Assembly (NCBI GenBank): GCA_963832055.1
Contig: CAWHST010000004.1
Span: 454,409-518,408 of the forward strand
Source: an uncultured Gemmatimonadales bacterium
GTDB lineage: Bacteria > Gemmatimonadota > Gemmatimonadetes > Gemmatimonadales > GWC2-71-9
Direction of reading: 5' to 3'
Length of the DNA stretch: 64,000 nt
Shown: positions 23,245-45,663 of the stretch, piece by piece
Layout: the number at the start of each line of letters is the position of its first letter
Numbering within the stretch: the stretch's first letter is position 1
The notes under the pieces: model-generated
What the model was told of the DNA's origin: nothing
The model's database searches: none
What the model saw: the letters and a program-made list of their open reading frames with translations, nothing else
Made by a program: the position numbers and the translations under genes

Positions 23245-23860
23245 GGCAGATAATGTAGCGGCGATGGTTCGGCTGATGCTCGTCACCGACGACCGGTTGG
23301 TCGAGGGACGGGACCTGGTGGCGCTGGCGCTGGCCGCCGAGCGCGGCGGGGCGACGTCGTTGCAGCTTCGGCTCAAGCTGGCCTCGCCCCGCGAGCAGGT
23401 CGACCGAGCCCGCGCGCTGGTCGCGGCACTGCGGATCCCGGTGCTGGTGAACGACCGGCCCGACATCGCGCTCGCCGCGGGGGCCGCCGGTGTGCACCTC
23501 GGCCCGGACGATCTGCCGGTGGCGCTGGCCCGCCGGATAGCGCCACCCGGCTTCATCATCGGCGCCTCGGTCGGCGCGGCCGCCGAAGCCGATGCCGCGG
23601 CCCAGGCCGACTACTGGGGCATCGGACCCTGGAGGGCGACGGGGACGAAGGCGGACGCGGGTGCGGCGCTCGGGGCGGAGGGGTTCCGAAGGCTTTCGGC
23701 GCTGGGAGCCGGCAGGCCGTGCATCGCCATCGGTGCCGTGCGGCCGGAGGACGTGCCTCTGGTGCTCGCTGCCGGCGGGTCTGGGGTGGGGGTGGTATCG
23801 GGGATACTCGGAGAGGAGGACGTGGAGCGGGCCACCCGGCGATTCGCGGCCTCGGGATGA
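23243..23860 (+). CDS. thiE: Thiamine-phosphate synthase
   Basis: ...RLMLVTDDRL...GGATSLQLRLK...RIPVLVNDRPDIALAAGAAGVHLGPDDLP...IIGASV...ADYWGIGPWRATGTKAD...IAIGAV...GGSGVGVVSGIL. An alternative start is at 23264. Confidence 0.88.
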   Translation: MADNVAAMVRLMLVTDDRLVEGRDLVALALAAERGGATSLQLRLKLASPREQVDRARALVAALRIPVLVNDRPDIALAAGAAGVHLGPDDLPVALARRIAPPGFIIGASVGAAAEADAAAQADYWGIGPWRATGTKADAGAALGAEGFRRLSALGAGRPCIAIGAVRPEDVPLVLAAGGSGVGVVSGILGEEDVERATRRFAASG

Positions 23861-23873
23861 CAGGTGCCGCCTG

Positions 23874-24956
23874 CTATCTCCCTCGCCGCACCCGCGCGAT
23901 CGACCGCAGGTGCTCGTCGTAGGTCTTGGAGAACACATGCCGTCCGTCCGGCCCCGCCACGAAATAGAGGTAGGGCACCTTCGCTGGATGGAGCGAGGCC
24001 TCGAGGCTCCGCCGGCTGGGTGAGTTCACCGGCCCCGGCGGCAAGCCCCGGTTGAGGTAGGTGTTGTACGGCGACCGGAACTGATAGTCTCTGGTGAAGA
24101 GCCTGGGCTTGCGCTTTCCGGTGGCGAGGAAGATCGCGTACTGCACCGTCGGGTCGGCCTGCAGCGCCATCCCGATGCGAAGCCGGTTGTGGTAGACCCC
24201 GGCGATCGTTTCGCGCTCGTCATCGGCCCGCGCCTCGCCTTCCACGATCGAGGCGAAGGTGACCAGCTGCGCCGGGGTCCAGCCCAGGGAATCGAGGCGC
24301 CGGTCCCACTCGGGCTTCCAGGCCGACTTGAATCCCTCGGCCATCACCCGCACCAGCTCCGGCGCCGTCGTTCCCAGCCGGAGCGAGTAGGTCTCCGGCC
24401 GGAGGAATCCCTCGAACGAACGGACCGGAAAACCCAATGTCGCCGAGGCGGCGGCGCTGTCTCGCGCGGCGGCCATCACCGAGTCGGCCGGTATCCCAAG
24501 CTTCTGTTGCGCCAGCGCCGAAACCTCGGGAATGGTGAGGCCCTCGGGGACCGTGAACCGGGTCGCCACCTCGTCGCCCGCCTCGAGGATATCGAGCACT
24601 TTCCAGACGGAGATTCCGGGGGTGAACTGGTACACTCCCGCCCGCACCGAGCGGTCGGCGCCCCGCACCCGGGCGATCAACTTGAACCAGAAGCGGCTCC
24701 TGACGACGCCGTGGGCGGCCAGCGTGTCAGTCACCGCCGAGAAAGTCGCACCGGGCGGGAGGGTGACCCGTTCGGCGGAGGAGTTGCTGCCGCAGGCGAG
24801 GAGGGTGAGGGTGAGAAGGAAGCACAGGGCGGACGGGCGGACGGGCGGACGGGCGGAACCAAGGGCCGCTACCGAACCTTGCTCCGGGCATCGGGCACCG
24901 TCCGTCCGTCCGCCCGTCCGCCCGTCCGCCCTACCGGTCACGCACCCGCCTGGCAT
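23874..24956 (-). CDS. mltG: Endolytic murein transglycosylase MltG (YceG-like)
   Basis: ...AGVYQFTPGISVWKVLDIL...FTVPEGLT...GFLRPETY...LVTFASIVEGEA...IAGVYHNRLRIGMALQADPTVQY...SPYNTYLNRGLPPGPVNSP...YLYFVA. The start is uncertain (ATG 24956 or GTG 24941), and the N-terminus is read through palindromic element B1. Confidence 0.88.
   Translation of the reverse strand: MPGGCVTGRADGRTGGRTDGARCPEQGSVAALGSARPPVRPSALCFLLTLTLLACGSNSSAERVTLPPGATFSAVTDTLAAHGVVRSRFWFKLIARVRGADRSVRAGVYQFTPGISVWKVLDILEAGDEVATRFTVPEGLTIPEVSALAQQKLGIPADSVMAAARDSAAASATLGFPVRSFEGFLRPETYSLRLGTTAPELVRVMAEGFKSAWKPEWDRRLDSLGWTPAQLVTFASIVEGEARADDERETIAGVYHNRLRIGMALQADPTVQYAIFLATGKRKPRLFTRDYQFRSPYNTYLNRGLPPGPVNSPSRRSLEASLHPAKVPYLYFVAGPDGRHVFSKTYDEHLRSIARVRRGR
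24827..24931. repeat. REP-like palindromic element, family B copy 1 ((GGACGGGC)n arm / ~40-nt loop / (GCCCGTCC)n arm)
   Basis: GGGCGGACGGGCGGACGGGCGGACGGGCGGA occupies 24827-24857. CCGTCCGTCCGTCCGCCCGTCCGCCCGTCCGCCC occupies 24898-24931. At least 24 nt of the two arms are perfectly complementary. Confidence 0.7.
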
Positions 24957-25374
24957 CCAGGAAATGCTGCAGCAGCACCGCGGCCGCCAGTGAATCCACG
25001 TCGGCTTTCCGGCCCCGAGTACTGCCGCCCTGCTCGCGAATAGCGGCGAGCGCCCGCGCGGTGCTCATCCGCTCGTCCCACAGCTCGACCGGGAGCCCGC
25101 TCTTGCCGGCCAGGCCGCCGGCGAGCTCGCGGGCGGCGACGGCGCTCTCCTCCTCGTCACCCTCACCGGTCAGCGGCAAGCCCACCACTAGGCCGGACGG
25201 CTCGTGCAGCGCGATCAGCTCGAGGAATCTCGACATGGGAAAGCGCTTGCCCCGCCGGCGGACCAGCGTCTCCAGCGGCGTGGCCAGGGTTTGAGTCTCG
25301 TCGCTGAGCGCCAGGCCGATCCGGACCTCGCCCCAGTCGACCGCCAGAATCCGGCCCTCCACGGGAAGTGGCAT
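24931..25374 (-). CDS. ruvX: Putative pre-16S rRNA nuclease / Holliday junction resolvase-like YqgF
   Basis: MPLPVEGRILAVDWGEVRIGLALSDE...GLVVGLPL...DERMSTARA. Track ORF 24931..25449 over-extends into palindrome A2. Confidence 0.88.
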   Translation of the reverse strand: MPLPVEGRILAVDWGEVRIGLALSDETQTLATPLETLVRRRGKRFPMSRFLELIALHEPSGLVVGLPLTGEGDEEESAVAARELAGGLAGKSGLPVELWDERMSTARALAAIREQGGSTRGRKADVDSLAAAVLLQHFLDARRVRDR

Positions 25375-26986: not shown

Positions 26987-27169
26987 ATGGTCGAATCAGA
27001 ACGTCTGGGCAAGCTCCGGCACGACCTTTCGAACCCCCTCTCGGCCCTTCTGGCCGAGATCCAGCTCCTCTTGCTCAACGAGTCCCAGTTCGACCCCGAG
27101 ACCCTGACCAGTCTCAAGGAGATCGAGGCACTGGCCATCCGGATGCGGGGCATGCTCCGGGACATGTGA
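26987..27169 (+). CDS. Stand-alone HisKA/DHp-like mini-protein (60 aa)
   Basis: MVESERLGKLRHDLSNPLSALLAEIQLLLLNESQFDPETLTSLKEIEALAIRMRGMLRDM has an H-box-like helix (LRHDLSNPLSAL) plus a second helix. No sensor or ATPase domain is present in any adjacent frame. It converges on the RDD gene (stop at 27171). Confidence 0.4.
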   Translation: MVESERLGKLRHDLSNPLSALLAEIQLLLLNESQFDPETLTSLKEIEALAIRMRGMLRDM

Positions 27170-27170
27170 C

Positions 27171-28925
27171 TCAGCCGGACCGCCGGACCCCGCCGTTCAG
27201 CAGGTAGGCGGCGAGAAAGGCCAGACTCCCGGCACTGGCGGCCGCCCGGAACGCCACGTCACCTCCGCCGACCGACACGAACCCCTCGATCAACCCCGAC
27301 ACCACCAGCAGCACCGCCGCCCCGCCCACCATCCTGACCGCGGTCCGCCCGCTCAGGACCAGGGCGTCTCCCCGACTCAGATCTCCCGGCGCCACCACCG
27401 TACGACCGAGCAGGAACCCCGCGGCCCCCGCCACCCAGATGGCGAACAGCTCGAGCAGGCCATGCCCGAGGATGAACTCGAGCAGGTAGCCCAGCAGTCC
27501 CCGGTTGGCGAAATGCCCCGCGGTGGCTCCGATGAGGAGGCCATTGAATCCGAGCAGCACCAGGGAGCCGACCCCCAGGAAGATGCCCCCGGCGAAACAG
27601 GCGATGGCCACCCGGACGTTGTTGGTGATGATTCCCGACGCCATCAGCGGGCGGTCCTCCACCGCCACGTCCACATAGCGCCTGCCCGCCGCCATGCGTT
27701 CCGCCCCGGCATCCGCGCGCTGGATCATGACCTCGGGGAGCATGTCGACGGCCAGATCCGGCTGCTCCCGCATGAGCAGGTAGCCGGCCCCGGCCGGCAG
27801 CAGGAACGCGAGACAGGCGAGGGCGATATAGGCTCGGGCCTGGCGGATGGCGGCAGGGCACTCCCGGATCAGCACCTCCCAAACCCGCCGCCAGGTGCCT
27901 CGCTCGTCCCGGTACAGCGCGTTGTGGCCGGCGGCCGCCAGCCGCTCCAGGTGCTCCAGGGTGGCGTCGTCCACCCCATAGGTCCGGGCGCGCGCCAGGT
28001 CGGCCGCGACCTCCCGGTAGCGGGCGGCGAAATCGGGCAGCTCGTGCGAGGCGAAGCTGTCGAGCCCTTTGCTGGCGGCGCGCTCGGCCAGCTCCTGGAA
28101 TTCGGCCCAGCGGGCCTGCTTGCGGGCCGCGAAAGACGCGGCGGCCGCGGAGCCCTTCAAGGCGACGGTGCCCTCCCGCCGGTCCCGCTCCCGGCGGTGC
28201 AGCTCCAGCAGGTGTTCCAGATCGCCGACGCCCGACGGCGCGGGGTGGTCCGCCAGCCGACGGGCGATCGCCGCCGCGAGCCGGAGCCTGGCCGGCTGGG
28301 CCAGCTGGGCTTGCCGGCCCTCGAACTGGGCCACCAGGCGGAACTCCGCGTCGGTCAGCTCCGGGATCAGAGAGAGCGGAGCCGTGGGCTGACTCCGGGG
28401 CTTGGTGGGGACGACCAGCTGGGAGGGACGGTCTCGTGCCACCACGGTGCCGGCGACCATATCCCCCAACCGCTTCCCCCGCGGGTGCAAGGCCACGAGC
28501 AGGGCGCCGGTCAGGTAGGGAGGAGGCAGGAAGTCGGCGACTCGCAAAAGGTTGCGTGCCGCCGCCGCGCTGAGGCTGACCGCGTTGCCGGTGTCGCTGA
28601 CCACCCGGATTCCGACCATCCGCTTGCCCGGCGTCTGCCCCTGGCGCAGCCCCTCGAACAGGATGAAGTAACCGGTCCAGGCGGCGAATCCCCCCAGCAT
28701 GAGAAGTGCGCCGCCGATCGAGCCGAGCGTCACTCCGAAACCGGCGACGATGCTCAGCACGATGAACACGCCAAGCATCGAGCCGACCAGCACCAGCATG
28801 TCGATGAGCGCCGCGAGCGCGCGGGAGCCGACCCCCGCGATCTCGAGGTCGAGCGTCACGTGCTCCGGCGTTTCGACCTGGAGCCGCTGGCGGTAGTCGG
28901 GTGGGGAGGGGCGCCGCTTCGTCAT
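27171..28925 (-). CDS. RDD-family membrane domain fused to stage II sporulation protein M-like (SpoIIM/DUF95) membrane domain
   Basis: N-terminal RDD pattern (...AGVGSRALAALIDMLVL...TPGKRMVGIRVV...RNLLRVAD...GKRLGDMVAGTVV). A helical linker follows. The C-terminal part has the multi-TM SpoIIM-like pattern (...IITNNVRVAIACFAGGIFLGVGSLVLLGFNGLLIG...GHGLLELFAIWVAGAAG...). The ORF is intact at 584 aa. Confidence 0.8.
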   Translation of the reverse strand: MTKRRPSPPDYRQRLQVETPEHVTLDLEIAGVGSRALAALIDMLVLVGSMLGVFIVLSIVAGFGVTLGSIGGALLMLGGFAAWTGYFILFEGLRQGQTPGKRMVGIRVVSDTGNAVSLSAAAARNLLRVADFLPPPYLTGALLVALHPRGKRLGDMVAGTVVARDRPSQLVVPTKPRSQPTAPLSLIPELTDAEFRLVAQFEGRQAQLAQPARLRLAAAIARRLADHPAPSGVGDLEHLLELHRRERDRREGTVALKGSAAAASFAARKQARWAEFQELAERAASKGLDSFASHELPDFAARYREVAADLARARTYGVDDATLEHLERLAAAGHNALYRDERGTWRRVWEVLIRECPAAIRQARAYIALACLAFLLPAGAGYLLMREQPDLAVDMLPEVMIQRADAGAERMAAGRRYVDVAVEDRPLMASGIITNNVRVAIACFAGGIFLGVGSLVLLGFNGLLIGATAGHFANRGLLGYLLEFILGHGLLELFAIWVAGAAGFLLGRTVVAPGDLSRGDALVLSGRTAVRMVGGAAVLLVVSGLIEGFVSVGGGDVAFRAAASAGSLAFLAAYLLNGGVRRSG

Positions 28926-29027
28926 GGGGCGATTCTAACCTCTCGCGGAAGGACTCGCATCTGTCGCACCGGCGAAGCATCTTACTCCTCAGTCATCCTG
29001 TCACTGTTCAAGCCGCCGGAGTTTTCA

Positions 29028-29795
29028 ATGGTGCCCACGACCCTGCGACCGCTATCGGTGGGTGAGATCCTCGATGTGTCGTTCACGCTCTACCGCCGCC
29101 ACTTCGCGACCCTGGGCACGGTCGCCGTACTCTGTTCCGGGCTGCCGGTACTGCTGAGCCTCTACATCGAGGCCTCGGGCGGGGTGCTTCAGAATCTGTC
29201 GCTCACGCTGGTGTACTACGTGGTGTTCACCGTTCTGAGCTCCATCGCGACCGCCGCGACCGTGTTCGTCGTCTCGGCGAGCTACCTGGGGCAGCCGCTC
29301 AAGGCCGCGGGTGCGCTCAAGCGGGCGACCCCGCTCCTCGGACGGCTCATTCTCTGCTCGTTGCTCCTCGCCATCGTGGTCGGTTTCGGATTCCTTTTCT
29401 TCATGGTCCCCGGCATCGTGCTCCTGTGCGGCCTGGTCCTCGCCTTTCCCTCGCTGGTGCTGGAGCCCGGCAGCTCCCCCACCGGAGCGCTGTCCCGCTC
29501 CTGGTCGCTCACCCGGGGGTCACGCTGGCGGATGCTGGGTCTCTTGGTGACACTGCTGGTCCTGCTCTACGTCCCGATCATCGCCCTCGGCGCGATCGCG
29601 ACGGTGGTGCTCCCGTCCGGCGGAGGCGCTGGAAGCTTCACCCCAGGCCTCCTGACGCTGGCGGTGGTGGGAGTGATGCAGATGCTGCTGTATCCCTTGC
29701 TCTATTGCGTCCTGACGGTGGCCTACTACGACCTCAGGGTTCGCAAGGAAGGCTTCGACCTGGAGGTGCTCGCCTCGACCCTCCAAACCGCCTGA
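29028..29795 (+). CDS. Polytopic membrane protein (GPDPase-membrane-domain-like / DUF-type commonly linked to DUF4129-MoxR clusters)
   Basis: [26 protein letters not shown]... is followed by ~6 hydrophobic segments and ends ...LTVAYYDLRVRKEGFDLEVL. This is the ATG-initiated tail of track ORF 27462..29795. Confidence 0.7.
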   Translation: MVPTTLRPLSVGEILDVSFTLYRRHFATLGTVAVLCSGLPVLLSLYIEASGGVLQNLSLTLVYYVVFTVLSSIATAATVFVVSASYLGQPLKAAGALKRATPLLGRLILCSLLLAIVVGFGFLFFMVPGIVLLCGLVLAFPSLVLEPGSSPTGALSRSWSLTRGSRWRMLGLLVTLLVLLYVPIIALGAIATVVLPSGGGAGSFTPGLLTLAVVGVMQMLLYPLLYCVLTVAYYDLRVRKEGFDLEVLASTLQTA

Positions 29796-29800
29796 ACGCC

Positions 29801-30421
29801 GTGCTGCCGCAGGGACAGGCCGGCCCCGAGCTTTACCGGGCGGTGCTCGATTCCGTCTTCGCGACCAAACCCTACCAGTGGGCCCCGCAGTCGGCGGTGC
29901 TTCGCCTCATCTCCGAATGGTGGGACTGGCTGATCCGCTATCTCGACGGGCTCCGGGCCCAAAACCCCCTGCTGTTTCGCATCTTCCTCGTCGCGGTCCT
30001 GCTCGCCTGGGTAGCCATCTTCGTCCACGCCGCGTGGCTGGTCTGGCTCACGGTCCGCGGCGCAGCCCGGGCCGAACGGACGGTCGCGCTTCCCGTCGCG
30101 GGTGAGCGTCACGACGCCGAGTGGTATACCCGCGCCGCCGATCGGGCGGCCGCCGAGGGCCGCTTCGCGGAGGCCCTCCAGCTCGCGTTCGTCGCGCTTG
30201 CCCTGACGCTGGAGGGTCAGGGACTGCTGCAATACCACCCCAGCAAGACCCCGGCGGAGTGCGCCCGCGAGGCCCGGCTCGCGGGCTCGGACCGGGAGCG
30301 GCTGAGGGACCTGGTCAGGAGCCTCTACTCCTACGCGTTCGGCGGACGATCGATCGCCGCGGACGACTACCGGCGCTGGCGGGAGAGCGGGGCGGGACCC
30401 TGGCATGCGCCCGCGCACTGA
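29801..30421 (+). CDS. DUF4129-like protein (N-terminal TM + helical domain)
   Basis: GTG start 6 nt after the upstream stop. TM segment LLFRIFLVAVLLAWVAIFVHAAWLVWL, then ...EWYTRAADRAAAEGRFAEALQLAFVALA...HPSKTPAECAREA...LYSYAFGGR, which is typical of DUF4129. Confidence 0.7.
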   Translation: MLPQGQAGPELYRAVLDSVFATKPYQWAPQSAVLRLISEWWDWLIRYLDGLRAQNPLLFRIFLVAVLLAWVAIFVHAAWLVWLTVRGAARAERTVALPVAGERHDAEWYTRAADRAAAEGRFAEALQLAFVALALTLEGQGLLQYHPSKTPAECAREARLAGSDRERLRDLVRSLYSYAFGGRSIAADDYRRWRESGAGPWHAPAH

Positions 30422-31615
30422 GCTGAGCCTCGCGGCCGGTCTCCTGTTCCTGCTCGGCGTGGTCGTCGTCGCGGTGGGCAGCAGCCGGGCACAGCCCCCG
30501 GCGCGCGAATCGTCCCGCTCCACCTACCTCACCGGCCCCGGCGGCGCGAGTGCGTTCGCCGAGGCCGCTTCTCGACTCGGGGTCGCGGTCGAGCGCTTCC
30601 GGCGGCCGATGGTGGCCCTCAAGGTGACGGACACGGGCCGGCGCGGACGAGGTCGTTGCCGTCATCGGGCCCGCGACCGCGCTCAGCCCGGCCGAGTCGA
30701 AGCATCTCCTCGATCTGCCGGTGGATCTCCTGCTGGCCGGCACCAACTCAGGCCAGCGCGATCCGCTGCCTCGGCTATCATGTGTCGGTGCGAAAGCGGA
30801 CCGATCCGGCGGCGACCAGGGCTCCGGCCGGCGCAGAACGCCTTCCGTCTCCCAGGGTCTGGGCCGTGCTGACACCACACATGGCCCGGCAAATCGTGGA
30901 CTCGTCGGGAGACGACGGACGCAAGGTGAGCTGTGACGTGCCGGTGCCGGTCCGGGTGGACACCCTGCTTCAGACCCTGACCGACCGGCCGGTGGTGGTG
31001 CGGCTCACCTACTCCGACCGGCGGGTCGTGACGGTCATGGCCGAGGACCGGCTCTTCCGGAACCGGACGATGCGCAGGACCTCGGCCGGCGAGCTGGTGC
31101 TCGGGCTGGTGACGCCGCGCTACCGCCGCGTGGTGGTGGACGAGTTCCACCACGGATACCAGGTCGCCGGCTCGCTCACCGGAGCCGCATTCGGCTGGAG
31201 CACCCGCTCGCCCTGGGGATGGATCGTGTGGCAGCTCGCCGCCGTGGGTCTGGTGGCGCTGCTCGCCTCGGGGGTCAGGTTCGGGCCGGTGCGGAGCGCG
31301 ATCCAGCGCCGGCGCCGCTCGCCGATGGAACACGTGCGCGCGCTGGCGACCGCGCTCGCCGCCGCGCGGGGACACGACGTGGCGGTGCGTCTGATGATCC
31401 AGGGTCTCCGGCGGCGGCTTTCGCTGGGCGGCCGCCCGCCGCCCGCCGATCTCGGCAGGTGGCTCGAAGGCCTCGGGCCTTCGGTCCGGACCGCGCGTGG
31501 GCGGGAGGCCCTGGACTCGCTCACCGCCGTGACCCGCCGCCCGCCGGACGCGGATAGCGTTCTGCAGGCCGCCAATGCCGTGGAGAACCTGTGGGAGGAG
31601 CTGAAGCCGACATGA
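30405..31615 (+). CDS. DUF4350-like protein; needs ~2 frame corrections (~30640, ~30755)
   Basis: N-terminus MRPRTELSLAAGLLFLLGVVVVAVGSS...STYLTGPGGASAFAEAASRLG (ORF 30405..30872). Then DEVVAVIGPATALSPAESKHLLDLPVDLLLAG in the frame of ORF 30721. Then ...VVVDEFHHGY...TM...MEHVRALATALA (ORF 30656..31615). The stop forms an ATGA overlap with the MoxR start. Confidence 0.6.
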
Positions 31616-32596
31616 CCACCGCAATGGCGCCGCTCGGCGCCGAGGAAGCCTTGCGCGGGGCAGGAGAGGCCCGGGCGATCGTGGAACAGCTCGGCCGCGT
31701 TGTACTGGGGCAAGAGGCGGCGGTGCGCGACGCGGTGGCGGCGCTCATCGCCCGGGGGCACGTGCTGCTGGAGGGAGTGCCGGGCACCGCGAAGACGCTC
31801 CTGGTCCGGGCGCTGGGCCAGATCCTCAGCCTGGAGTTCCGGCGGATCCAGTTCACGCCGGACCTCATGCCTTCGGACCTCACAGGGGTCAACCTGTTGG
31901 CCGGTCCGGGAACCTTCACTTTCCGCCAGGGACCCATCTTCGGCGATCTGGTGCTGGGCGACGAGATCAACCGGGCCCCGGCGAAGACGCAGGCCGCATT
32001 GCTGGAGGCGATGCAGGAGCGGCGGGTCACGGTGGACGGCGTGTCCCACCCGCTGCCGGAGAGCTTCACGGTCTTCGCCACCCAGAATCCGATCGAGTTC
32101 GAGGGCACCTACCCGCTGCCCGAGGCCGAGCTGGACCGGTTCCTCGTGAAGGTGATCGTGGGCTATCCCGACGAGCCGGTGGAGCAGGGGATCCTTCACC
32201 GGGTGCTGAACGGGTTCGAGGCCGACACGCCGGCGAGCTACGGGGTGGATCGGGTGGCGGACACCGCGGGACTGGCGCGGCTGAGGAACGCGTGCCGGCG
32301 GGTGCGAGTCGAGCCCACCGCTGGTGGCGTACATCGCGGCGATCGTCCGGGCGACCCGGACCGCCCCGGTCCTCACGCTCGGCGCGTCGCCCCGGGCCAG
32401 CGTCGCGCTGCTGAAGATGTCCCAGGCCTCGGCGCTGCTGGAGGGACGGTCCTTCGTCGTGCCGGACGACGTGAAGACGCTGGCGCCTGCCGTGTTGCGG
32501 CATCGGGTCACGGTGGCGCCCGAGCTGGAGCTCGAAGGCGTGTCGCCCGACGCGGCGCTTCGCGGCATCATCGAGAAGATCGAGGCGCCCCGGTGA
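31612..32596 (+). CDS. MoxR-family AAA+ ATPase; frameshift near ~32315
   Basis: ...VVLGQEAAVRDAVAALIARGHVLLEGVPGTAKTLLVRALG...IQFTPDLMPSDLTG...GPIFGDLVLGDEINRAPAKTQAALLEAMQERRVTVDG...FTVFATQNPIEFEGTYPLPEAELDRF. The C-terminus lies in ORF 32324..32596 (...LGASPRASVALLK...VVPDDVK...VLRHR). Confidence 0.9.
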
Positions 32597-33913
32597 GGCT
32601 GATTCCCTCGCGACGGTGGCTGTTGGGGGCGGCGGCGCTCGCGCTGATCGCGCCCGCCGGGCTGTGGTGGCCCGGCGCCCTGACGCTCCTGCTCGTGCCT
32701 GGACGTCGTCTGGATAGTGGCCGGTGCCGCGGACGCCCTTGCCGCTCCCGGTGCCCGGGCGGTCGCCGTGCGCCGCGAGGCGCCGGTCGCCTTCTCCCTC
32801 GGTCGCCGGTTCATCATCCGCTACCGCTGGCGCCACGCCGGTCGGCGGCGGCTCCGGGTCGAAGTGAAGGAGCACCTGCCCGAGCCGCTCGGCGGCGCGG
32901 TCTCGCCGCTTCGCCGGCTGGAGCTGCCGGCCCATCTGACCGTCGAGGAGCAGCTCGAGCTCGAGCCGGTGAGGCGGGGCATCGGGACCGGCGGGACCAT
33001 CGATCTGCGGATCCTGGGCCCGCTCGGCCTGGGCTGGCGACAGAGCCGGATCGAGGCGCCGTGGACCGCGACGGTCTATCCCAGCCTGCGCGGCGCGTGG
33101 CTGCGGGCCCTGCCCATCCAGGCGATCCGGCGGCGGGAGGCCGGACTCCGCAGCGTGCGGCACCGGGGCGAAGGGCAGCTCTTCGAGGGCCTCCGCGAGT
33201 GGGTGCCGGGCGACGACACCCGGACCATCGATTGGAAGGCAACCGCCCGCCGGGGCAAGCCGATCGCGCGGCAGTACGAGGACGAGCGGCGGCAGCAGGT
33301 GATGTTGGTGGTGGACGCCGGACGCCTGCTCACCGCGGAGGTGGAAGGCGTGCCGCGGCTGGAATCGGTGATTTCAGCGGCGCTGCACCTGGCCCATGCC
33401 GCCGTGGAGCACGACGACAACGTCGGACTGCTGGTCTTCGCCGACACCATCCAGCGCTACCTGCCGCCCGCCCGCGGGCGCCGCGCGCTCCGCGCCGTGG
33501 TGGAGGGACTCGCCGCGGCCGAGGGCCGGCTGGTCGAATCCGACTATCCCGCGGCGTTCCGCTACCTGGCCGCGCGAAGCCGGAAGCGCGCGCTCACCGT
33601 GCTCTTCACCGACGTGATCGACCGGACCGCGAGCGAGGCGCTGGTGGCGCAGACGGCGACCCTGCGCCCGCGCCATCTTCCGCTGGCCGTCACCCTGCGC
33701 GACCCGGCGATGGAGGCGCTCGCCTCGGCCCGACCGGCCGGGCCGGCCGACGCGTTCGAGCGGGCCGCGGCGGAGGAGCTGCTCGGCGCCCGTGAGGCCG
33801 CCCTCGGCGAGATGCGCTCGCGCGGCGTCATGGTGCTCGATGTGCTCCCGGCCGGCGCCAGCTCGGCGCTGGTGGAGCGATATCATCTGTTGAAGCGAAA
33901 GGGAATGCTCTAG
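32593..33913 (+). CDS. DUF58 protein (vWA-like, MoxR partner); frameshift near ~32700
   Basis: GTGA overlap with the MoxR stop. N-terminal TM region (VRLIPSRRWLLGAAALALIAPAGLWWPGALTLLLV...), then ORF 32717..33913 with G(E)GQLFEGLREWVPGDDTRTIDWKATARRGKPIARQYEDERRQQVMLVVDAGR. Confidence 0.85.

Positions 33914-39254: not shown

Positions 39255-45663
<6,409 letters not shown>

Follow-up and report, generated by a model that had tools for sequence, protein, structure and literature searches.

What is the cluster of membrane-protein genes that accompanies a MoxR ATPase gene and a DUF58 gene at positions 27171-33913 of this DNA, and does the fusion of its RDD and SpoIIM parts into one polypeptide set it apart? 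We analysed the window, i.e., the whole 64,000-nt stretch (~68% G+C) from an uncultured Gemmatimonadales bacterium, alongside related genomes. Judged by sequence and gene content, the region is a lineage-typical copy of a known, experimentally uncharacterised cluster, that of the Rv3689-Rv3695 type; it was not discovered in this window, and the window copy is an ordinary member. The module comprises seven families: RDD, SpoIIM-like with a DUF8413 N-domain, a GPDPase_memb-like polytopic protein, DUF4129, DUF4350, MoxR and DUF58. Its parts are co-inherited: an ATPase, a vWA adaptor and five families of membrane proteins, which here occupy four genes. Among bacterial gene sets whose function has yet to be tested, the cluster is one of the more widespread, and it is carried by the tuberculosis bacillus; any handle on its mechanism is therefore useful. 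The window adds a phylum-wide natural fusion, its one useful feature. Overall, we consider the best explanation probably to be a seven-family module whose apparent breaks are artefacts and whose products are proposed to form a single ATP-driven inner-membrane complex.

Gene layout and frame breaks

The features of the locus are listed below in window coordinates.

27171-28925, minus strand: RDD-DUF8413 (linker)-SpoIIM fusion gene, 584 amino acids (aa), intact (frame plot of G+C at third codon positions (GC3), stop-to-stop open reading frames (ORFs), Pfam)
28449-28838, minus strand: RDD membrane domain, aa 30-159, ~3 transmembrane (TM) helices (Pfam, topology, AlphaFold2 (AF2))
27846-28400, minus strand: DUF8413 linker domain, ~185 aa, charged, all-helical, cytoplasmic (topology, alignment, AF2)
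27273-27815, minus strand: SpoIIM/DUF95 membrane domain, aa 371-551 (Pfam, topology)
28926-29027, unstranded: divergent intergenic region, 102 bp, between the fusion gene and the plus-strand operon
29028-29795, plus strand: polytopic membrane protein (GPDPase_memb/DUF7847/UPF0259-like), 255 aa, intact (Pfam, precomputed DUF7847)
29801-30421, plus strand: DUF4129 protein, 206 aa, intact, GTG start (Pfam)
30405-31615, plus strand: DUF4350-like gene, ATG at 30405, true product 402 aa, broken by two 1-nt insertions (tblastn frames 0, 1, 2)
31612-32596, plus strand: MoxR AAA+ ATPase, ATG at 31612, true product 327 aa, broken by one 1-nt insertion (Pfam AAA_3 and AAA_lid_2)
32593-33913, plus strand: DUF58 protein, GTG at 32593, stop at 33913, true product 439 aa, broken by one 1-nt insertion (Pfam DUF58 and VWA_2)

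An earlier note on this DNA had described a 584-aa RDD-SpoIIM polypeptide on the minus strand, separated by about 100 bp from five plus-strand genes that diverge from it. Indeed, both Pfam domains lie in one ORF, and the divergent region measures 102 bp. The families named for the five genes also stood, that of DUF4350 by way of its orthologues; the implied intact frames did not stand for DUF4350, MoxR and DUF58, whose four insertions had gone unmentioned. As described there, DUF4129 and DUF4350 overlap by 17 nt (30405-30421), DUF4350 and MoxR by ATGA (31612-31615), and MoxR and DUF58 by GTGA (32593-32596). The gap between the membrane-protein stop and the DUF4129 GTG, given there as 6 nt, is actually 5 nt. 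MoxR is the fourth gene, directly upstream of DUF58, with which the operon ends. Housekeeping genes (rho, ruvX, yceG) flank the locus.

The GC3 signal and tblastn with intact orthologues revealed that, in the window as given, the frames of DUF4350, MoxR and DUF58 are interrupted. DUF4350 runs through three frames, and MoxR and DUF58 switch frame once each: AAA_lid_2 lies one frame on from AAA_3, and the TM hairpin of DUF58 is in a different frame from the rest of that protein. The genome assembly (G000) that holds the window is a 3.99-Mb Gemmatimonadales metagenome-assembled genome (MAG) in 6 contigs, with an estimated completeness of 62%. It was compared with an independent assembly of a 98.4%-identical strain (L019; ENA ERZ25039586, contig_2462) and, in a three-way nucleotide alignment, with two congeners (G004 and G009). 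In the closest relative (G014), the contig stops just beyond the fusion gene, making a comparison of the operon impossible there. The three-way alignment exposed exactly four 1-nt insertions in the window; the remaining indels were all multiples of three.

30647 +/-2 nt, plus strand: inserted base 1, taken as spurious, GCGG[A]CGAG, in DUF4350
30750 +/-5 nt, plus strand: inserted base 2, taken as spurious, ACTC[A]GGCC, in DUF4350
~32318, plus strand: inserted base 3, taken as spurious, CCCA[C]CGC, in MoxR
~32697, plus strand: inserted base 4, taken as spurious, TCGT[G]CCTGG, in DUF58

All four are absent from L019, G004 and G009. L019 encodes intact MoxR (327 aa) and DUF58 (439 aa, intact in G009 too). 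Its DUF4350 gene carries a different extra base of its own at window position ~31015, and this gene is thus falsely split in the L019 record as well. On a short-read contig of 98% identity, the DUF4350 gene is intact (402 aa) and overlaps its neighbours by the same 17 nt and 4 nt. When indel columns were dropped, the six genes became clean ORFs of the expected length (DUF4350 open over 1209 nt), and the differences from L019 were almost all synonymous: the ratio of nonsynonymous to synonymous differences (pN/pS) was 0.00-0.13, like that of rho, and 0.06 for the fusion gene. All of the module genes are under purifying selection.

Similar insertions are found well beyond the operon. Relative to L019, 13 single-base insertions and 4 single-base deletions fall in 21.7 kb of the window, with ~0.6 one-base insertions per kb in the flanks. 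Such insertions are far more numerous relative to G004, at sites where the long ORF of G004 stays open, and they also occur in intergenic DNA and many other genes. Outside the window, rpoC (contig C4, ~850969-855576) runs through frames 1, 2, 0 and 1, and UvrA and Lon also appear split. The absence of the four insertions from L019 and the congeners, the low pN/pS, the 62% completeness and the frame changes in rpoC mark the breaks, on this comparative evidence, as assembly insertions and not biology.

Two biological accounts of the breaks may be weighed against this reading. Genuine decay of the operon in this strain, leaving DUF4350, MoxR and DUF58 as pseudogenes, would fit four frame-breaking insertions within 3.5 kb in a dispensable module that is missing in about half of related species; we give it only a slim chance, as pN/pS is low, no internal stops remain after indel removal, the 98.4%-identical strain lacks the insertions, the same type of insertion breaks rpoC three times and recurs in the flanks, and the assembly is incomplete and in 6 contigs. 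Programmed +1 frameshifting or quadruplet decoding at the four sites draws on the fact that the breaks are all in the +1 direction. Recoding is not supported, however, because the sites share no motif; the breaks are also absent from near-identical and related genomes, and like insertions lie in intergenic DNA and in many other genes, so that we assign this idea next to no probability.

Assembly errors are thus the main trap of this locus. The assembly holds approximately one spurious inserted base per 1-2 kb, and ORF-level oddities in G000 must therefore be compared with a relative before they are believed. Single-base insertion errors were seen genome-wide in G000; in the window, positions near 472, 625, 3066, 3317, 3648, 42845, 48234 and 49051 mark breaks at which the long ORF of G004 continues.

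Conservation and known relatives

Is the neighbourhood conserved outside this genome, and is the fusion real? To answer, we collected +/-10 kb around DUF4129 matches (40 loci in 38 Gemmatimonadota genomes of five families) and annotated these loci with iterated profiles built from the window proteins. The four-gene core DUF4129-DUF4350-MoxR-DUF58 was found in 35 of the 40 loci, and a 36th contig (L035) ends inside DUF4350; the polytopic membrane protein was likewise present in 35 loci. In 33 of the 35 core loci, the fetched flank also contained the fusion gene. Once the window, G004, G009, G027 and L019 are counted in, 25 loci show the fusion gene diverging from the operon start and 11 show it converging with the DUF58 end. 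RDD, linker and SpoIIM form one stop-free ORF in all 37 of the 37 Gemmatimonadota loci concerned, including those in many-contig (presumably short-read) assemblies, and at least 120 database proteins have this architecture. The two findings that could have overturned the earlier note, a neighbourhood confined to this genome and a stop between RDD and SpoIIM, were therefore not encountered.

The phyletic profile proposed in that note was computed on one fixed set of 150 high-quality Gemmatimonadota genomes. DUF4129 and the fusion occurred together in 67, DUF4129 only in 6, the fusion only in 6, and neither in 71 (odds ratio 132, Fisher p 7e-28, by a test that ignores phylogeny). Three of the six DUF4129-only genomes were examined: two (G073 and G146) had weak matches inside amidohydrolases, which were rejected, and one had a TgpA-type protein. 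The two genes were at most 7 kb apart in 63 of the 67 genomes and unlinked, yet both kept, in the other four. This tight profile shows that the parts of the module are gained and lost together. About half of Gemmatimonadota species have the module, and even within the genus it occurs patchily, which makes it accessory.

The families also cluster in Pseudomonadota, Actinomycetota, Bacteroidota, Verrucomicrobiota, Cyanobacteriota and Planctomycetota, where RDD and SpoIIM are usually separate neighbours. Our profiles matched Nocardia farcinica, Prevotella, Lysobacter soli, Imhoffiella purpurea, beta- and gammaproteobacterial MAGs, a Verrucomicrobiota genome, cyanobacteria and a Planctomycetaceae MAG. 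The gene set is thus kept together through rearrangements and across phyla, and the claim that RDD and SpoIIM are more often separate genes holds outside Gemmatimonadota, both in our loci and in a published account (PMC8191103). Outside Gemmatimonadota-labelled records, single-ORF fusions were only sporadic (L121, L134 and L102). These three are labelled as a Planctomycetaceae MAG, a Clostridia MAG and a sponge MAG of Gammaproteobacteria, respectively, and they could reflect independent fusion, transfer or mis-binning.

The closest described relative is mycobacterial Rv3689-Rv3695, in which MoxR2 is Rv3692 (BB28_RS01875-01900 in M. chelonae, MAB_0386c-0392c in M. abscessus). Like the window, it places a membrane protein, DUF4350, MoxR, DUF58, SpoIIM-like and RDD genes side by side (PMC8191103), and the M. 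chelonae orthologues of Rv3689, Rv3691, Rv3692, Rv3693, Rv3694c and Rv3695 are adjacent genes whose expression falls together (PMC8191103). Under our own profiles, the Nocardia locus has the same layout. The difference is that RDD and SpoIIM are separate, divergent genes there and one fused polypeptide in the window. No client or phenotype of the module was found in the literature searched, in agreement with the earlier note.

Proteobacterial versions were located on plasmids with DUF58 as the query, as tblastn of DUF4350 against plasmids gave no match: Paracoccus aminovorans p_II (OH746_RS20805-20830), Rhizobium pRheCIAT894d (RS26655-26680) and Catenovulum adriaticum pCadTS8_2 (OLW01_RS18055-18080). 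They share DUF4129-like, DUF4350-like, MoxR, DUF58, SpoIIM and RDD genes with the window, and all of their overlaps are 1-4 nt; unlike the window, they use a single strand and keep RDD and SpoIIM separate, in either order. Catenovulum differs further in that its membrane protein is fused to DUF4129: OLW01_RS18070 (L062:2736-4283), a 515-aa "hypothetical protein", matches both the polytopic and the DUF4129 profiles and is thus another naturally occurring fusion within the module. In the Paracoccus (L060) and Rhizobium (L061) plasmids, the module is directly preceded by one or two genes for DUF805 membrane proteins.

Other MoxR systems were compared with the module as well. Archaeal arCOG01314 (DUF4350)-MoxR-vWA neighbourhoods, for which a role in secretion or in membrane remodelling has been predicted (Makarova et al. 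2015, PMC5898192), resemble the window in a DUF4350 protein with a signal or anchor, an outer domain (GldG-like and flavodoxin-fold there, and by weak fold matches possibly so here) and a C-terminal TM helix, encoded with a MoxR-type ATPase and a vWA protein; they add Ig-like and S-layer proteins, and their descriptions mention no RDD, DUF4129 or polytopic protein. The same authors noted SpoIIM homologues beside vWA and COG0714 ATPase genes in bacteria (PMC5898192). MoxR-DUF58-TgpA operons (P. aeruginosa TgpA, PMC3507681; PMC3495828) have the MoxR-DUF58 pair and a DUF4129-bearing membrane protein in common with the window; theirs carries Transglut_core/TgpA_N, whereas DUF4129 stands alone on a single-TM protein here. 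In Bat/MRP MoxR operons (Bacteroides, Francisella, Riemerella), for which a stress- or envelope-related chaperone-like role has been proposed, a MoxR (AAA_3) gene is also followed by DUF58 (PMC11834572). There, MoxR is the first gene and not the fourth, and Pfam found no BatA/BatB vWA membrane protein or TPR protein among the six module proteins. PADLOC had no model that matched any of the six.

Bacillus subtilis SpoIIM, of the DMP engulfment complex, shares the Pfam SpoIIM/DUF95 membrane domain with the fusion, which adds the DUF8413 N-domain and RDD. Neither SpoIID nor SpoIIP was found among the six module proteins or the called genes of the L019 locus, no genome-wide search having been made, and Gemmatimonadota are not known to sporulate. 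It has been argued that SpoIIM homologues in non-sporulators must do something else (Makarova et al., PMC5898192). An RDD protein of P. aeruginosa that is upregulated in tam mutants (PMC13098762) was also considered and could not be tied to the module.

Architecture of the module proteins

Pfam assigned RDD (2.5e-20) and SpoIIM (1.1e-33) to the 584-aa fusion, and precomputed annotation of identical proteins places PF28475/DUF8413 between them. Where RDD and SpoIIM are split, DUF8413 is the N-terminus of the SpoIIM-like gene; its invariant residues are R204, W273, Y303, R304, D309, R312 and H334. The AF2 model (predicted local distance difference test (pLDDT) 84.5; predicted template modelling score 0.77, which is only suggestive) orders the chain as ~3 TM helices, then seven helices in the cytoplasm and, last, a further five or six TM helices. 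Searches of the PDB with the fusion, by sequence and by fold, returned nothing significant; the weak Foldseek matches were mostly to transporters and were insignificant (E > 0.6, TM-score < 0.25). That the fusion spans the phylum argues that RDD and SpoIIM-like proteins work as one unit. Together with the membrane-protein-DUF4129 fusion of Catenovulum, it would indicate 1:1 physical pairing of the parts.

Upstream of the fusion gene, GTTAGAATC, with a TAGAAT -10-like box (window 28926-28940, minus strand), is conserved in the genus and ends 6 nt before the fusion ATG. A sigma-70 consensus pair was sought in the 102-bp region and none was found, and a terminator scan at the locus found nothing. 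The fusion mRNA may be leaderless or very short-leadered. At the other end of the gene, a 60-aa HisKA-like ORF (26987-27169, plus strand; weak PF00512) stops 1 nt from the fusion stop codon; L019 and three independent Logan contigs have it called too, so that among close relatives it accompanies the fusion gene.

On the plus strand, the polytopic protein, with 5-6 TM helices, narrowly passes the Pfam GPDPase_memb cut-off (30.2 vs. 29.6 bits). DUF4129 (Pfam 8.8e-10) is the sole domain of its 206-aa protein, which has one TM helix followed by a 131-aa basic cytoplasmic tail; Pfam found no Transglut_core or TgpA_N domain in it. In the same phylum, DUF4129 is also C-terminal in TgpA-type transglutaminases encoded beside MoxR-DUF58 (L032, L058), and at such true TgpA loci those two domains are present. 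Because it is common to the module and to these proteins, it is a plausible docking element for the ATPase-adaptor pair.

The fragmented DUF4350 pieces of the window had no Pfam match, and the intact G009 orthologue scored 27.4 bits, below the 30.4-bit cut-off; the 402-aa gene on the 98%-identical short-read contig has a precomputed DUF4350 match. The protein, encoded directly upstream of MoxR, is predicted to have an N-terminal anchor, an outer domain of ~240 aa, a TM helix and a tail of 112 aa. It is most strongly conserved at RRSPLEH, just inside the membrane, with invariant R304-S305-x-x-E308-H309 after the TM helix. The best Foldseek matches of its AF2 model (pLDDT 87.6) were oligosaccharyltransferase (OST) chain G (6ezn_G, 7oci_G), which we take to be Wbp1/OST48, IFT52-N (5fmr_A), class I glutamine amidotransferases and GH42 beta-galactosidase. 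The alignment contains no conserved Cys that could belong to the catalytic Cys-His-Glu triad of true glutamine amidotransferases, and the outer domain is therefore probably a non-catalytic scaffold. This GIFT-like fold, itself a weak match, agrees with the published HHpred assignment of DUF4350 as GldG (Makarova et al. 2015, PMC5898192).

MoxR (AAA_3 2e-59, AAA_lid_2 1.7e-23) is soluble, and both Walker A (GVPGTAKT) and Walker B (LGDEINR) are present. DUF58 (Pfam DUF58 1.5e-35, VWA_2 3.5e-6) consists of an N-terminal TM hairpin and a 390-aa cytoplasmic part with a vWA-like domain. The MIDAS (metal ion-dependent adhesion site) of this domain is degenerate: DAGRL stands where a canonical vWA has DxSxS, and the column reads D-x-G-R/K/H in 43 orthologues from four phyla, i.e., all of the phyla sampled. 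NCBIfam yielded a specific family for no membrane component.

Candidate mode of action

How might these proteins work together? We propose that they assemble into one inner-membrane complex, in which a soluble MoxR AAA+ hexamer would be tethered at the membrane by the TM hairpin of DUF58 and its cytoplasmic vWA-like adaptor, which lacks a canonical MIDAS. MoxR would spend ATP to assemble, remodel or gate its partner membrane proteins via their conserved cytoplasmic parts, namely the tail of DUF4129, the RRSPLEH motif that DUF4350 carries next to the membrane, and the helical DUF8413 domain. The GIFT-like (GldG/IFT52/OST48-like) extracytoplasmic domain of DUF4350, apparently non-catalytic, would be the only large outward-facing element; thus, the output or input of the module probably concerns the cell envelope. 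Whether the seven families make up a kind of AAA+-driven, envelope-directed inner-membrane machine that has so far escaped recognition is more doubtful, though a possibility worth entertaining. A lipid-linked or glycan substrate might be handled via the GIFT-like outer domain, in the manner in which GldG and OST48 scaffold complexes. If so, the fusion would be a single-chain Rosetta stone for two orphan membrane folds without a solved structure, setting their stoichiometry and relative topology.

Several points weigh against the proposed complex. Both its formation and its direction of action are inferred. The fold matches of DUF4350 are weak (E 5e-3 to 0.1, probability 0.85-0.98, TM-score 0.2-0.5), and the fusion, having no structural relative in the PDB, leaves its activity unconstrained. 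The co-occurrence test took no account of phylogeny, and some of the taxon labels outside Gemmatimonadota come from MAGs and may be wrong.

Other functions would also accommodate an ATPase amid membrane proteins. By analogy with the predicted MoxR-vWA-TgpA degradation system, whose TgpA is a YebA-like transglutaminase/peptidase, the module might serve membrane-proximal extraction or quality control: DUF58 would recruit a client, MoxR would unfold or extract it, and the membrane proteins would be the platform. Zhang & Aravind (2012, PMC3495828) propose such a role for MoxR-vWA-TGL operons, and in Gemmatimonadota DUF4129 is common to the TgpA proteins and the module, both beside MoxR-DUF58. We nevertheless judge this analogy unlikely to hold, since the module has no peptidase or transglutaminase core, its DUF4129 protein being that domain only, its vWA MIDAS is degenerate, and no conserved protease gene was seen in the neighbourhood across the annotated loci. 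It is less probable again that ions or solutes pass through RDD, SpoIIM and the polytopic protein, with MoxR-DUF58 assembling or regulating this pathway. A Halobacillus RDD-family protein has been reported as a Na+(Li+,K+)/H+ antiporter (PMC5996927), and the weak structural matches of the fusion point the same way; those matches are insignificant, however, the module RDD has three TM helices and is invariably accompanied by six other families, and transporter family models match none of the module proteins. An anti-phage or conflict system of the MoxR-vWA type seems very improbable. The patchy distribution would suit it, as would a weak secondary Pfam match of MoxR to bpMoxR (8e-10), the family of MoxR-vWA-beta-propeller ternary conflict systems, yet the AAA_3 match is far better, the PADLOC models pass over all six proteins, no effector, beta-propeller or nuclease gene is present, and the flanks are housekeeping genes.

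Two further stretches of the window, apart from the module, drew attention in these comparisons. Window ~23800-25000 differs from L019 far more than the DNA around it does: the 24-25 kb bin has 67 mismatches, and indels of 11 nt and 3 nt lie at 23863 and 24819, respectively. At window 39641-42780, a tandem array (period 276 nt) gives many off-diagonal BLAST matches to G004.

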